Source of the DNA: an uncultured Erysipelotrichaceae bacterium
Lineage (GTDB): Bacteria > Bacillota_I > Bacilli_A > RF39 > UBA660
Direction of reading: 5' to 3'
Assembly (NCBI GenBank): GCA_902767375.1
Contig: CACXGV010000048.1
Coordinates: 1 to 46,987, forward strand
Length of the DNA stretch: 46,987 nt
Shown here: positions 42,492 to 46,987 of the stretch, piece by piece
Layout of the letters: each line of letters begins with the position of its first letter
Position numbering within the stretch: position 1 is the first letter of the stretch
Position numbers and translations under genes: made by a program
Notes under the pieces: generated by a model
Seen by the model: only the letters and a program-made list of their open reading frames with translations
What the model was told of the DNA's origin: nothing
The model's database searches: none

Positions 42492-43574
42492 TCACTTCCA
42501 CTTTTGTAATAAATATTTTTTGATTTCTTCATAATCATTTTTAAGACTATTTGTAATAATATTCAATTCAATATCATTATATACATCTTTTAATTTTTTG
42601 CTTGGTTTAATATTTAATATATTAATTATATCAATATTATTTATACAGATATCCTTGCGGCTTTTAATTTGCATATTAGCGTACATATTATTTATTTCTT
42701 GTTTATTTATTTTTAGCACACTTGCTGCTACTTGGCATATATATAGTCCCTCTTTATATAATGTTAAACAATCTATTTTTCCTTGTTTTGTAATTTCTCT
42801 TATTTTATTGATTACTTTTAAATTATCTTTTGTAAAAGGATAATTTGGGGAAAAAGAAATTTGGGACCATATTGCTAATAAATCTGAACTATGTATTATT
42901 TTATCATAATTTATTTCTAATGCTGATAATAAATCTAATTCTTTTAAAAATTTTAAACCTTTTAAGACATTTTTGGATGAAAAAATCTTATCTAGTTCTT
43001 CTTTCTTTCTTGTATAACTTAAATTCTTTATTAAATCTTTATGTAGATTTATAAAATTAATTATTTCATCATCAAGCTTAAAACCCAAGATTATTGAAAA
43101 TCTGATAGCTCGTAAAATTCTTAATGGATCTTCAGTTAATTTTTCATCGGTATTACCGATTACCTTAATTAAGTGATTTTCTAAATCTTTTTGGCCATTT
43201 AAGTAGTCAAAGATTGTTCCTTCTTTGTTCATGCAGATGGAATTAATCGTAAAATCTCTTCTTTTAATATCCAGTATGAGATTATTGGTATATTCTACTG
43301 TTTGAGGTCTACGATTTTCATAATTTGATTCTTTACGATAGGTAGTAATGTCAAAATTGTATTTACCATTTTTTATCGTGATTGAACCATAAGATGATGT
43401 TTCTTTTTTGATGTTAAAGATATTGATTACATCTTTTGGTAGTGCATTAGTTGAGATGTCAACATCTAACGATTTTATGCCTAATAGATAATCTCTAACA
43501 TATCCTCCTACAATATATGCTTCAAAGCCATTTTCTTCGATTTTTTCTAAGATATTTTTAATTTCTATATCCAT
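42492..43574 (-). CDS. cca: CCA tRNA nucleotidyltransferase (class II)
   Basis: VGGYVRD, DVDIST, RRDFTIN, EDPLRILRAIRF. Confidence 0.92.
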   Translation of the reverse strand: MDIEIKNILEKIEENGFEAYIVGGYVRDYLLGIKSLDVDISTNALPKDVINIFNIKKETSSYGSITIKNGKYNFDITTYRKESNYENRRPQTVEYTNNLILDIKRRDFTINSICMNKEGTIFDYLNGQKDLENHLIKVIGNTDEKLTEDPLRILRAIRFSIILGFKLDDEIINFINLHKDLIKNLSYTRKKEELDKIFSSKNVLKGLKFLKELDLLSALEINYDKIIHSSDLLAIWSQISFSPNYPFTKDNLKVINKIREITKQGKIDCLTLYKEGLYICQVAASVLKINKQEINNMYANMQIKSRKDICINNIDIINILNIKPSKKLKDVYNDIELNIITNSLKNDYEEIKKYLLQKWK

Positions 43575-43622
43575 CTTAACACCTAATTAAAGTATATCAA
43601 ATTAATTATTATTTGTGAACTA

Positions 43623-43772
43623 TTAACATACTCTGCCCGTACGATATCTATTTAATGATGAGCCAATTGCGCGGCCTACTTCTAATAGAATTGATAGAAT
43701 TCTAGAGATGGAGTTTAAAAGATTACCATTTACTTCCCCGCCAGTTATTTTTGCCATATCTTTATCAGCCAT
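43623..43772 (-). CDS. Double-glycine-leader peptide B, 49 aa (not in ORF track)
   Basis: MADKDMAKITGG|EVNGNLLNSISRILSILLEVGRAIGSSLNRYRTGRVC*; ATG overlaps the peptide A stop region by 8 nt. Confidence 0.8.
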   Translation of the reverse strand: MADKDMAKITGGEVNGNLLNSISRILSILLEVGRAIGSSLNRYRTGRVC

Positions 43773-43902
43773 TGCACTTCATTGGCCTAAAGTATCCGTC
43801 TATGATTCCAGCTATGAGACTAAGTCCAGCCCCAAGTATGGCATATATTATCCAACCTTTTCCACCGCCAGTAATATTTTTCATTTCTTTATCTTTAAGC
43901 AT
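43765..43902 (-). CDS. Double-glycine-leader peptide A, 45 aa, class IIb bacteriocin-like (not in ORF track)
   Basis: MLKDKEMKNITGG|GKGWIIYAILGAGLSLIAGIIDGYFRPMKCNG*; SD AGAAAGGA; overlaps the transporter stop by 8 nt. Confidence 0.88.
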   Translation of the reverse strand: MLKDKEMKNITGGGKGWIIYAILGAGLSLIAGIIDGYFRPMKCNG

Positions 43903-45862
43903 TTTCTTCCTTTCTAGCAGTTATTTTAATTATTCGATCAAATGAATAGTTCTCTAAATTATGGCTTACATATATTATTAATTTGTCTTTATAATAATTA
44001 TTTATATTATAAATAATCTTATTACGTAAATTATAACTTATTTCAGATAGGGATTCATCCAATAGTAAAATTTCTTTATCTTGATATAGATTTCTAGCTA
44101 GTATTATTATTTGTTCTTCTCCCCTACTTAAATTATTATCGATAATTGAGTTTAATTTATAATTTTTTTTATTAATAATTTTTTCTATGTATAATAGTTT
44201 AATTATAGTTAAGAATTTATTTTTGTGATACTTTTTATTTAATATAATGTTGTTTATGATAGTATCTTTAAATAGGATATCTTTGTTACTCGAATAAATA
44301 AGATGTTTTTTTATGTCTAGGTTTCTAATATCTTGATTATTTATGGTTATAGTGCCTTCATAATTAGTTATATTTTTACTTATGATATTTAATAATGTTG
44401 ATTTTCCAATCCCATTTGGGCCTTTTATTAATATTTTCTCTTTAGGTTTAATGGTTAGGTAATAATTTTGAAATATTATATTATTATTTATTTTATAACC
44501 TAAATCCTTAATTTTGATATTACCAATTTTAAAGCCTTTTAAGGGTTTTTCTTCTTCAATGTAGTAAATACCATTAATTCTGTCAATTATGCTTTTAAAA
44601 TGGTTTAAATTGCTTAATAGACTATTAAAATATGTTAAACATTCATTATAGTAGCCATATAAAAGAATTATTATAATAATATTAGACAAGTTGTTATTAT
44701 AATTATATATAAATATAAGGACTAATAAAATATCATTAAATATATTATTAATAACAGATAATTTATTTAAATATATATCTAAAGAATATGATTTAATGTT
44801 ATTATCCTTAATATCCTTTTTTAGAATACTTAAAAAATGGTTTTCTAAATGAATATTTTTTATATTAATAAGACTATTAATATATTCAATTAACATATTA
44901 TTTAAGCTACTTTCAGAATCTAAATAGTTTAGATAGTTTGTAAATCCTTTTTTATTAAGTAAATAATAAAATATGATATAAATTATTGATACTACTATTA
45001 GTATTATAGTAAGCTTATAATTTAAATGGTAAAACAATATTAGTATTATGATAAATGAGAATAAGTATATAAAAGAATTTACTAGCTCTTTTATATATAA
45101 ATTCTTGATACTTTGTAAATCATTAATACGAGATATTATTTCTCCGCTACTTTTTAACTGCAAATATGATGAAGGTAAGAAAAAAACATGTTTTAAGTAA
45201 TTATTGATAATCTTAATATTATTATTTTTATCTAAATGCGCTAGTAAAATATTTTTTAAATATATTAAGACATTCTTACTTAAAGCTAGAATTATAAAAA
45301 CAGGTAATTTTTGATAACTTGTTATTAGTGATTTTAGATTGTAAGTATTAATTAATGAAAATAGTATTACCATTATACTTAATAATAAAATAATTATTAT
45401 TTGTAAGTATTCTTGTTTAATGTATGTTTTTATATTATCAAAGAAGTAATTATTCTTCTTATATTTAATTATTCTGTTAATTGGTAAAAGTTTTAATACA
45501 TTTCCAGTTGAAATATTATTATACTCAGTGCTGGACATTTTAACTAATCCTTTAGCAGGGTCCATACATAGATAATAATTATTTTCATTTTTATATACTA
45601 CAATGAAATGATAATAACCATTTTCTAGAGTTTGAACAATATATGGTGGTTTTATTTCTTCTTTATAATATCCATATACTTCAAAGCCGTATCTTTCAGC
45701 AGCCTTTTTTAAATTATAAAAATTTGTTCCTTTATTAGTAGTTAAAGTATCTAACTTTATAATTTCTAGTGGAACAAAGCCACCATAATATTTAATAATT
45801 GATAAAAGACAACTTGCACCACAATCATTATTATCATTCTGCTTTACAATATATTTTTTCAT
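43895..45862 (-). CDS. C39 peptidase-containing ABC transporter (PCAT)
   Basis: QNDNNDCG (Cys), YHFIVV (His), DPAKG (Asp); TMD; GPNGIGKST, LSRGE, LLLDE, VSH. Confidence 0.92.
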   Translation of the reverse strand: MKKYIVKQNDNNDCGASCLLSIIKYYGGFVPLEIIKLDTLTTNKGTNFYNLKKAAERYGFEVYGYYKEEIKPPYIVQTLENGYYHFIVVYKNENNYYLCMDPAKGLVKMSSTEYNNISTGNVLKLLPINRIIKYKKNNYFFDNIKTYIKQEYLQIIIILLLSIMVILFSLINTYNLKSLITSYQKLPVFIILALSKNVLIYLKNILLAHLDKNNNIKIINNYLKHVFFLPSSYLQLKSSGEIISRINDLQSIKNLYIKELVNSFIYLFSFIIILILFYHLNYKLTIILIVVSIIYIIFYYLLNKKGFTNYLNYLDSESSLNNMLIEYINSLINIKNIHLENHFLSILKKDIKDNNIKSYSLDIYLNKLSVINNIFNDILLVLIFIYNYNNNLSNIIIIILLYGYYNECLTYFNSLLSNLNHFKSIIDRINGIYYIEEEKPLKGFKIGNIKIKDLGYKINNNIIFQNYYLTIKPKEKILIKGPNGIGKSTLLNIISKNITNYEGTITINNQDIRNLDIKKHLIYSSNKDILFKDTIINNIILNKKYHKNKFLTIIKLLYIEKIINKKNYKLNSIIDNNLSRGEEQIIILARNLYQDKEILLLDESLSEISYNLRNKIIYNINNYYKDKLIIYVSHNLENYSFDRIIKITARKEENA

Positions 45863-45878
45863 TTCTCACCCTCTAAAA

Positions 45879-45914
45879 CTTATATTAACGATAAACTGGG
45901 GATTTCCTTTTTTC
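45879..45914 (-). promoter_or_regulatory. sigma-H-like promoter of the PCAT-peptide operon
   Basis: AAAGGAAAT-N12-GTTAATATAAG; second copy at 46738-46772. Confidence 0.6.
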
Positions 45915-45939
45915 TTTGTCATTTTGTTTATAAGTATTT

Positions 45940-45968
45940 AAAAACTGCGTTTTATTTACGCAGTTTTT
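45940..45968 (-). terminator. Intrinsic terminator after the CmpB-family gene
   Basis: AAAAACTGCGT-loop-ACGCAGTTTTT. Confidence 0.8.
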
Positions 45969-46644
45969 TTCTTTTTGAGAAATCTTTTTTTAAGCTCTTT
46001 AATCTTTCAACTCTCCTTGGATTCTTTTCAATATATGGGAAAGCATCAAATAATCTTGTTCTAATACGATTTATTTTTATATTATTATTCTTGGTATATT
46101 CATTTAATATAGTATCTAAGTGACCAGCAATATTATTGGTCCTAATAATATTTATAATACTAGCAGTACTATCTGCAATTAAGATAATTATTATAATTAG
46201 TGAAGCTATCATTCTAGTTTTAGCGGGAATAGATAATACAAAAGCAAATATATATTGATTTGCCAAGTAAATAGTAAATAATCCTCCCACTCCAAAAAGA
46301 GTACTATTTAGAAGACATACTCTTCCATTAATATGATATTTTCGATAGGAATAATCCCACCATTTTCGTTTGAATATTTTTTCAAGGGCAAAACTTGTAA
46401 AATATTCTACACATGAACAAATTATAAAACTGAAAGTAAAAACTACTATCGGATCATTATAATAACCAGTAAGAAGAAAAGTAATTAAAACTCCGCCCAC
46501 TCCATAAATTGGAAGATATGGGCCAATTAAAAAACCTCTATTTACAAGTTTTTTAGTTCTAAAGTATACAAATAATGTTTCGGATATATACCCAATAACA
46601 CAGTAAATAAAGAAAATTAAAAAGTAATAATAGAAATCTTTCAT
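45952..46644 (-). CDS. CmpB-family ('putative ABC transporter permease') membrane protein; start probably 46644
   Basis: NRGFLIGPYLPIYG, WWDYS, NGRVCL; SD AGGAG before MKDFYY; TTGATA-17-TAATAT promoter upstream. Confidence 0.85.
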   Translation of the reverse strand: MKDFYYYFLIFFIYCVIGYISETLFVYFRTKKLVNRGFLIGPYLPIYGVGGVLITFLLTGYYNDPIVVFTFSFIICSCVEYFTSFALEKIFKRKWWDYSYRKYHINGRVCLLNSTLFGVGGLFTIYLANQYIFAFVLSIPAKTRMIASLIIIIILIADSTASIINIIRTNNIAGHLDTILNEYTKNNNIKINRIRTRLFDAFPYIEKNPRRVERLKSLKKDFSKRKKLRK

Positions 46645-46737
46645 ATTAATCTCCTTTAATAAAATATTACTATTTTGATCATAATTTATCAATAAGTTTT
46701 CAACAAAATGGTTTTTTTATCAACAAATTTAGTTTTA

Positions 46738-46772
46738 GAAAAAGGAAATTATTATCTAATAGTTAATATAAG
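46738..46772 (+). promoter_or_regulatory. sigma-H-like promoter upstream of the 18-aa ORF and spoIIIAH-like gene
   Basis: AAAGGAAAT-N12-GTTAATATAAG, same spacing as the PCAT copy. Confidence 0.6.
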
Positions 46773-46825
46773 TTGTAGAGGTAAAGAAATACCTCTGGTG
46801 CGTTAGTAATAGTTAGGAGGTAAAA

Positions 46826-46882
46826 ATGATATACTTAAGAATTTTAAGAACTATAATCAAAATATTAAGTTTTATTATATAG
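46826..46882 (+). CDS. Putative 18-aa amphipathic small protein MIYLRILRTIIKILSFII
   Basis: Perfect SD AGGAGG at normal spacing; polar residues R5, R8, T9, K12, S15 fall on one helix face. Confidence 0.55.
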   Translation: MIYLRILRTIIKILSFII

Positions 46883-46928
46883 TAATAAATAAGATATTAA
46901 ACTAATATAATTTATTAATGGAGGATTT

Positions 46929-46987
46929 ATGATTAATAAACAAAAATTATGGTTTTTAACGTTATTCAGTTTAATATTAGTACTTGC
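46929..46987 (+). CDS. spoIIIAH: SpoIIIAH-like protein, 5' end only (truncated by the window)
   Basis: SD GGAGG; MINKQKLWFLTLFSLILVL resembles the SpoIIIAH N-terminal anchor (KKQTVWLLTMLSLVVVL). Confidence 0.7.
   Translation, partial: MINKQKLWFLTLFSLILVL

Follow-up and report, generated by a model that had tools for sequence, protein, structure and literature searches.

Probable divergent promoters upstream of the exporter operon and the SpoIIIAH-like gene

The 46,987-nucleotide stretch of DNA analysed here, hereafter the window, is the entire contig C48 (CACXGV010000048.1) of a 76-contig assembly (GCA_902767375.1; 1.05 Mb, 27.7% G+C, 87% complete) from an uncultured Erysipelotrichaceae bacterium. 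Towards its end, two very similar sequences, which we propose to be promoters of the sigma-H type, lie on either side of a cmpB-like gene and point away from each other (Table 1). The one on the minus strand precedes the gene of a C39-peptidase ABC exporter, followed by those of two double-glycine (GG) peptides, and the one on the plus strand precedes an 18-aa open reading frame (ORF) and a SpoIIIAH-like gene. The minus copy, read from 45914 to 45860, is GAAAAAAGGAAAT-CCCCAGTTTATC-GTTAATATAAGTTTTAGAGGGTGAGAAATG, in which the terminal ATG is the start of the exporter (45862), and the plus copy (46738-46791) is GAAAAAGGAAAT-TATTATCTAATA-GTTAATATAAGTTGTAGAGGTAAAGAAATA; both occur letter for letter as a first-pass annotation of the window had quoted them.

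Both copies, one per strand, contain AAAGGAAAT-N11-nGTTAAT, and in a repeat search the inverted repeat that they form was the longest one there (45861-45912 / 46739-46790; 52 nt, 77% complementary). With at most one mismatch allowed, the pattern AGGAAAT-N12-GTTAAT has three matches in the window for 0.40 expected, a number that none of 100 shuffles reached. The first-pass annotation had also drawn attention to 25 matching nucleotides out of 30 downstream of the shared -35 and spacer; this match is mostly explained by the extended -10 element (GTTAATATAA) and a Shine-Dalgarno sequence (SD) at a fixed distance from it, and it is common to most of the regulon described below rather than peculiar to the pair.

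Table 1. Positions of the promoter elements, genes and other features discussed in the text (window coordinates unless a contig is given).
Feature	Position	Strand	Basis or remark
Two double-glycine peptides: 45 aa (43765-43902) and 49 aa (43623-43772)	43623..43902	-	Overlap the 3' end of the exporter gene
C39-peptidase ABC exporter (PCAT), 655 aa	43895..45862	-	Pfam Peptidase_C39 (N-terminal), ABC_membrane, ABC_tran
Exporter SD GAGGGTGA	45866..45873	-	Direct reading
Predicted transcription start, exporter operon	45875..45877	-	Placed 7-9 nt past the -10
Exporter promoter -10 CGTTAAT, extended (GTTAATATAA) to 45880	45884..45890	-	Spacer of 11 nt, 45891-45901
Exporter promoter -35 AAAGGAAAT	45902..45910	-	Direct reading; fits the sigma-H -35 consensus RMAGGRWWW (PMC4754846)
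Intrinsic terminator of the cmpB-like gene	45940..45968	-	Sole terminator-like site in 43500-46987
cmpB-like membrane protein (PF06541)	45952..46644	-	Pfam E 1e-45; between the two promoters
Peptide/SpoIIIAH-like promoter -35 AAAGGAAAT	46741..46749	+	Direct reading, pattern search
Peptide/SpoIIIAH-like promoter -10 AGTTAAT, extended to 46771	46761..46767	+	Spacer of 11 nt, 46750-46760
Predicted transcription start, peptide/SpoIIIAH-like transcript	46774..46776	+	Placed from geometry alone
5'-proximal stem-loop AGAGGTA-AAGAAA-TACCTCT	46777..46796	+	RNA fold, -10.4 kcal/mol
Gene of the 18-aa cationic amphipathic peptide (MIYLRILRTIIKILSFII)	46826..46882	+	SD AGGAGG at 46815-46820
SpoIIIAH-like gene (start), 164 aa	46929..46987	+	Continues on contig C58, which overlaps the window end
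sigH orthologue, 197 aa	C59:7266-7859		Best hits, synteny, region 4.2 helix

Seven copies of the probable promoter in the genome

The 1.05-Mb genome holds six exact copies of the core motif, for about 0.2 expected, and a seventh copy with one mismatch (AAAGGAAAG) lies before comEA. A scan with a softened position weight matrix was bimodal, with seven sites at 27-41 bits and the next best at 18 bits. All seven are on the coding strand directly upstream of a gene, and at six of them an SD and a start codon follow 20-24 nt past the -10, the plus-copy promoter of the window having a longer leader. The enrichment on which the first-pass annotation had made its proposal depend is strong, and every site lies upstream of a gene. 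In addition to the exporter with its two GG peptides and the 18-aa ORF with the SpoIIIAH-like gene, the motif precedes comEA-comEC (contig C12), dnaG-sigA (C26), a Bro-N gene immediately upstream of spo0A (C5), genes for a 148-aa unknown and a 128-aa protein located upstream of hrcA-grpE-dnaK (C7), and the gene of a secreted protein (C46). Targets of the Bacillus subtilis type, dnaG-sigA and the gene upstream of spo0A, are touched as well, in a host that has spo0A, sigE, sigG and sigK. A search of the genome with the canonical -10 (AGGAWWW-N11-12-RNNGAAT) returned 19 matches, none in a convincing promoter context, and the organism does not appear to use a GAAT -10.

Conservation of the promoters and of their targets

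Forty relatives were scanned with the pattern of the window species, hereafter class A, which gave 33 matches in 10 genomes, the reversed pattern giving 4; with the exception of one chance match, they were confined to the genus. These matches precede orthologous genes, namely comEA (seven relatives), the SpoIIIAH-like operon, the C39 exporter, a 148-170-aa unknown, dnaG, an ABC ATPase/permease and a 143-aa membrane protein. Across 30 class-A sites, invariance is limited to the -35 AAAGGAAAT and the extended -10 GTTAATATAA; the spacer is variable, and its length between AAAGGAAAT and nGTTAAT is 11 nt at all sites. An SD and a start codon stand 19-27 nt beyond the -10 core at 54 of 69 non-redundant sites from 15 genomes.

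The two-promoter locus is retained in the 11 species examined (the window species and 10 others). Its conserved order is, on one strand, cca, GG-peptide B, GG-peptide A, C39 exporter, promoter and cmpB-like gene, and on the other strand, second promoter, 18/19-aa peptide, SpoIIIAH-like (164 aa), GerE-like and GerM-like genes. In the 10 other species, the exporter orthologues stand behind a matching promoter, and an orthologous GG-peptide pair is present in 10 out of 10. In related species, the motif stands before the corresponding genes, and the proposal of the first-pass annotation that the exporter/GG-peptide operon and the 18-aa-peptide transcript belong to one regulon is supported by these computational results. 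The most widely shared target is comEA, upstream of which a class-specific motif is found in all 24 genomes of the genus, including the comEA on contig C12 of the window genome.

The 143-145-aa membrane protein found in some relatives (L015, L020, L032; genomes G011, G006, G004) has a sigma-H-type promoter followed by TTCGACA/TTTGACA and a long leader. The latter element looks like either a 0A-box or a sigma-A -35, in what looks like a dual-promoter arrangement.

Promoter dialects and sigma-H variants within the genus

Dialect classes were defined from the sequences that precede comEA in the 24 genus genomes (Table 2). The class-B pattern AAGGAAAT-N11-TTACAACA occurs 4-11 times per genome in exactly six genomes, with 46 matches versus 0 for the controls and one stray match elsewhere. 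It stands before the same genes as in class A, including a divergent exporter/18-aa-peptide pair about 800 nt apart, like that of the window. In the sister clades, the -10 is TTACAAC (class B) or TACTAAAT (class C). Classes A and B have the -35 in common, and the region 4.2 helix of SigH hardly differs between them; in class C both the -35 (AAGTAAAT) and the helix (IK(T/Q)(I/V)YN..(G/Y)RI) are altered. In the class-C genomes, a distinct motif stands ahead of the peptide/SpoIIIAH-like operon and of a few further genes; because the search with the class-C pattern is AT-rich and noisy (10 matches versus 11 for the reversed control), this class rests on comEA, peptide/SpoIIIAH-like and a few other sites. 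In the SpoIIIAH-like protein, classes B and C show an equal distance (60-63%), and the extra divergence of the class-C SigH therefore does not come from phylogenetic distance alone. A simultaneous change of all promoters of a regulon is what one would predict from a change in one trans-acting reader.

Table 2. Promoter classes of the 24 genus genomes and the corresponding SigH proteins.
Class	Promoter	Genomes	SigH identity to that of the window species	Region 4.2 recognition helix
A	AAAGGAAAT-N12-GTTAATATAA	9, including one variant	71-82%	ILNKEPKQIDNTIQRIR
B	AAAGGAAAT-N11-TTACAACAATAA	6	62-65%	Almost as class A (N/G, T/S in some)
C/C2	AAGTAAAT-N12-TACTAAATATATA and AAGTAAAAT...GCTATATATA	8	37-45%	IL(K/N)LNIK(T/Q)(I/V)YN..(G/Y)RI
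D	AAAAGAAAT...GGTGTATATATA	1	50%	ILKKDIKKIYNTVHRIKNKI

Some class-B promoters (L105, L107, L112, L119) precede genes for a MvaI/BcnI-family restriction endonuclease, RhuM/Fic, Schlafen-AlbA_2/HATPase and DUF2204-like proteins, which are accessory, defence-like members of the regulon.

The sigma factor that may read the promoters

The genome encodes nine Sigma70_r2 proteins, namely SigA, SigE, SigG, SigK, a SigF-like protein, one ECF sigma factor, two long sigma-like proteins and one protein of 197 aa. The five best NCBIfam matches of the latter are all SigH models, aligned over the full length. Its sole match in the PDB is 3MZY, annotated as 'RNA polymerase sigma-H factor' (E 1.6e-15, residues 51-195), and the recognition helices of region 4.2, which are of the sigma-H type, are nearly identical in the two proteins (KQIDNTIQRIRNK in the 197-aa sigma versus KSIDNTIQRIRKK in 3MZY). 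The gene order on contig C59 is lgt, mrnC, rlmB-like, sigH, a gene for a 416-aa protein, secE, nusG, an insert, rplK and rplA, and synteny with rlmB (yacO) and secE-nusG-rplK is a criterion for sigH orthologues in Firmicutes (PMC3364868). We therefore take the 197-aa protein to be a divergent sigH orthologue at the canonical locus mrnC-rlmB-sigH-secE-nusG, so that the sigH homologue presupposed by the first-pass annotation is present, and where it would be expected.

It is worth comparing the promoters with the published sigma-H consensus (A/G)(A/C)AGG(A/G)WWW-N11-12-(A/G)(A/G)(A/C)GAA(A/T) (PMC4754846). The -35 (R-M-AGG-R-W-W-W) is found as AAAGGAAAT at both window sites, and it agrees at all 30 class-A and 46 class-B sites; the 11-nt spacer is within the 11-12 nt of the consensus. 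The -10 (R-R-M-GAA-W) disagrees, being (C/G/A)GTTAAT with only the central AA retained. The layout announced by the first-pass annotation, sigma-H with GAAT changed to TAAT, stands in that the 9-nt -35, the 11-nt spacer and the 7-nt -10 match those of sigma-H promoters; as the strict GAAT sequence is missing, the element would be a sigma-H-family promoter with a non-canonical -10, that is, a variant and not a canonical member.

From these lines of evidence, we propose, with a probability of about three in four, that both sites are promoters recognised by the RNA polymerase carrying the sigH orthologue of the organism. Region 4.2 of the sigma factor would read the -35 AAAGGAAAT, and region 2 would read the -10 nGTTAAT located 11 nt downstream. 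Transcription is predicted to start 7-9 nt past the -10, almost at the ribosome-binding site. The minus-strand promoter, located behind the cmpB-like terminator, would drive the C39 exporter and the two GG peptides, whereas the plus-strand promoter would drive a leader with a 5' hairpin and the 18-aa amphipathic peptide, and would probably read on into the SpoIIIAH-like, GerE-like and GerM-like genes. We infer the reading by the sigH orthologue, the place of the transcription starts, the timing of the activity and the roles of the peptides; the 'stationary-phase' timing and the 'peptide-controlled developmental circuit' of the first-pass annotation are speculation.

Several observations weigh against this proposal. 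First, the predicted exporter transcription start lies 1-3 nt 5' of the SD, which makes an unusually short leader. Second, the -10 deviates at the best-conserved base of sigma-H promoters, the G of GAAT. Third, the 197-aa sigma misses the NCBIfam SigH equivalog cut-offs, its best score being 85.3 bits versus 208-414, so that its orthology rests on the best hits, the synteny and the 4.2 helix. Fourth, the promoter classes coincide with clades, and the joint change of promoters and sigma-H therefore amounts to about 3-4 independent events. Fifth, the sigma factors of classes A and B differ by only five fixed amino acids, none clearly at a -10-reading position that would account for the -10 switch. 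Sixth, a conserved TAATATAAT box directly precedes the SpoIIIAH-like gene, which makes the dependence of that gene on the sigma-H-type promoter uncertain. Located about 20-25 nt ahead of the SpoIIIAH-like start codon (about 46902-46912 in the window), this box is kept in classes A, B and C whatever the dialect, and is probably a second promoter (sigma-A or sporulation sigma) for the SpoIIIAH-like, GerE-like and GerM-like genes. Of the first-pass claim that the SpoIIIAH-like gene is a member of the regulon, what stands is its position downstream of the promoter, its co-transcription being conjectural; the TAATATAAT box suggests a promoter of its own.

Alternative explanations of the shared motif

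Another sigma factor (SigF-like, SigE, SigG, SigK, ECF or a long sigma-like protein) might read what would still be a real promoter, given that nine Sigma70_r2 proteins are encoded and that the assignment to SigH is by inference only. We consider this unlikely, since sigma-H promoters typically combine an AGGA -35 with a short spacer, here of 11 nt, and the SigH 4.2 helix tracks the -35 across the genus. Furthermore, the consensus sequences of sigma-E/K (ATA/AC-N16-18-CATA), sigma-F/G and ECF factors (AAC-N16-CGT) do not fit the motif. Neither can the 478-aa sigma-like protein read a motif that is genus-wide, since it is strain-specific, having no orthologue in the other 23 genus genomes (best matches at most 41%, to SigE/SigK).

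Regarding the long sigma-like proteins, the 478-aa one is SigE/K-like with long C-terminal repeats, and is encoded together with an HNH gene between nusG and rplK (C59:10119-11910); the other is a 907-aa RpoD-like protein with repeats (C20:5675). Both look like mobile-element or phage-type sigma factors.

Slightly less probable again is that AAAGGAAAT is the site of an activator and the AT-rich GTTAATATAA a weak sigma-A -10. The latter sequence does include TAATAT and TATAAA, which resemble TATAAT, and tandem TTATCCACA-like repeats lie upstream of some sites in the window genome and its nearest relatives, so that extra regulators probably act there. However, the 9-mer has neither the dyad nor the direct repeat usual for activator sites, and in the 77-nt interval that separates the cmpB-like terminator from the exporter start, a sigma-70 consensus scan found no promoter at a suitable place. 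Moreover, the '-10' of class B becomes the non-sigma-A-like TTACAACA at every promoter of the regulon simultaneously, which fits a change of sigma factor better than a change of an activator sitting at the -35.

In the last alternative, the two copies would have no regulatory role, their likeness being a relic of local duplication or gene conversion, or a chance resemblance of AT-rich sequences. This view could draw on the extra similarity specific to the window genome, where the plus copy has a vestigial SD-like AGAGGT and an ATA in place of the SD and ATG of the minus copy, as might a relic of a duplicated exporter 5' end; it is very improbable, being effectively refuted by the genome-wide and cross-species data, namely seven dispersed copies before unrelated genes, conservation in at least 15 species with a variable spacer, and shuffle and reversed-pattern controls near zero.

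Genes of the exporter operon and of the plus-side transcript

The two peptides encoded behind the exporter have leaders ending in double glycine (...ITGG|GKGW... and ...ITGG|EVNG...), and a C39 exporter and two adjacent GG-leader peptides occur together as in a two-peptide (class IIb-like) bacteriocin operon with a PCAT exporter. Each has one C-terminal cysteine. Both are strongly conserved across species (43623-43902; L140-L149), peptide A in the motif ...AGI(I/L)DGY(L/F)RP.KCN and peptide B in the motif ...LNS.(A/S)R(I/V)...G(K/R)(S/A)(I/V)G(T/S)S...C. No histidine kinase or response regulator was found at the locus, nor any peptide sensor, and no immunity gene is evident, in that there is no extra small membrane ORF between the GG peptides and cca. 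The cmpB-like gene, which is in an equivalent position in all species examined, is only a candidate for immunity. Its terminator is predicted to insulate the exporter promoter, and it probably has its own sigma-A-like promoter (46692-46664, promoter-like TTGATA-17-TAATAT). The PCAT/two-peptide locus belongs to the core genes and is inherited vertically, which sets it apart from typical accessory bacteriocin loci.

On the plus side, the 5' stem-loop pairs the vestigial SD-like AGAGGT. About 12 of 21 orthologous leaders have a 5' hairpin at the predicted +1, with a stem sequence that differs between species; AATGAGCAA often comes after it, and it might stabilise the 5' end of the mRNA or serve in regulation. 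Orthologues of the 18-aa peptide, 18-19 aa long and with charges of +2 to +5, occur in at least 16 species, and the helical hydrophobic moment is about twice that of shuffles. All promoter classes of the genus contain this ORF family, invariably placed between a sigma-H-type promoter and the SpoIIIAH-like gene (L140-L172), and some class-C genomes have two copies of it. The SpoIIIAH-like orthologue is marginally over the Pfam SpoIIIAH threshold (31.8 versus 30.6 bits), and GerE-like and GerM-like genes lie downstream of it on contig C58.

The comEA promoter and the competence genes

With comEA-comEC among its targets, the regulon resembles the small sigma-H/ComX regulons of the competence type. 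The motif matches do not include any of the three T2SSE ATPase loci, the search not having covered comF, ssbB and coiA. DprA (PF02481) is absent from 23 of the 24 genus genomes, though comEA-comEC is universal and under a sigma-H-type promoter. We rejected a full competence regulon, since DprA is missing in these 23 genomes and no comG-type gene has the motif.

At the expected distance from the promoter, the sole candidate start of comEA in the window genome is an ATA (G000 C12:6787), where all relatives have ATG (MEFI...); there is no other in-frame ATG, GTG or TTG ahead of the membrane segment. The ATA is either a case of non-canonical initiation, a recent loss of the start codon or an assembly error.

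Just upstream of the comEA promoter, a perfect DnaA-box-like TTATCCACA occurs twice, with a period of 21 nt (G000 C12:6694-6723). Degenerate copies (TTTTCAACA, TTATCAACA, TTATAAACA) lie upstream of both window promoters (46697-46725, 45925-45933), and others are found in G019, in G011 and before some class-B exporters. A second perfect pair in the genome (C1:32530) is inside a coding sequence, and TTATNCACA is under-represented genome-wide (36 versus about 90 expected). The repeats were rejected as a general feature of the regulon, being confined to the window genome and a few close relatives.

Comparison with known sigma-H systems

A close likeness is to sigma-H of Listeria monocytogenes, whose promoters have a 9-nt -35 (AAAGGAATT or GAAGGAAAT) separated by 11 nt from a 7-nt -10, and whose tiny regulon of six promoters has comEA as a target, with conserved elements and variable spacers (PMC4754846). 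The two systems differ in the -10, which is GGCGAAT in Listeria and nGTTAAT here, and in their targets, since comGA and coiA are targets in Listeria, whereas here no other com gene has the motif (coiA being outside the search) and the regulon includes the PCAT/two-peptide operon and the 18-aa peptide.

Sigma-H of B. subtilis (Spo0H; RNAGGAWWW-N11-12-RNNGAATWW) shares with the present system the -35, the spacing and the sigH locus. Its regulon is large with degenerate promoters, in contrast to the few, near-identical promoters found here, in which the G of GAAT is replaced; furthermore, comE of B. subtilis depends on ComK, not on sigma-H. The sigA operon of B. subtilis has a sigma-H promoter, P3. 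A sigma-H-dependent promoter (Ps) also drives spo0A in that organism (PMC12090719).

ComX promoters consist of a -10 only, the cin-box. Similarly to what we propose here, ComX of Streptococcus pneumoniae is a sigma-H-family factor whose direct targets include both DNA-uptake genes and a two-peptide bacteriocin, CibAB (PMC5295010). An immunity gene, CibC, goes with CibAB, whose export takes another route, whereas here the operon contains the exporter itself and shows no evident immunity gene, and the host is likely a spore-former devoid of DprA. The sigma-H factors of Staphylococcus aureus and Lactobacillus sakei resemble the present one in being fast-evolving, in their conserved locus and in the direct activation of comE-type genes; their hosts are non-sporulating (PMC3486894, PMC3364868). 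Lactobacillus sigma-H-like proteins range from <20% to 67% identity within one genus (PMC3486894, PMC3364868). In a limited literature search, we found no report of a regulon-wide respelling of promoters within a genus for the sigma-H of S. aureus or L. sakei. As for 3MZY, its recognition helix (IDNTIQRIR) is near-identical and its overall identity moderate; it is not a promoter complex that could explain the -10 specificity.

Significance

The promoter type itself is known biology. Possible, though rather doubtful, is a wider proposal: that sigma-H and its regulon have been jointly respelled at least three times in the genus (AAAGGAAAT/GTTAAT, AAAGGAAAT/TTACAAC and AAGTAAAT/TACTAAAT), and that the core regulon is a sigma-H-timed, pre-sporulation programme of kin lysis and DNA capture, or a cannibalism-like one. 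In that proposal, the conserved core comprises comEA-comEC, the two-peptide PCAT system, the 18-aa cationic amphipathic peptide and the secreted protein. If this were true, the genus would offer a naturally evolved set of sigma-H/promoter pairs that are orthogonal to one another.

The promoter dialects that follow the sigma-H variants are a compact natural test case for the evolution of sigma/promoter specificity, and a possible source of orthogonal sigma/promoter pairs. The exact coordinates of the promoters of an alternative-sigma regulon also provide a regulatory handle on never-cultured, small-genome Bacilli of the gut and rumen. In these organisms, both the GG two-peptide system and the 18-aa peptide, the latter unannotated, belong to the core genes and are co-regulated, which points to a developmental or kin-interaction role.

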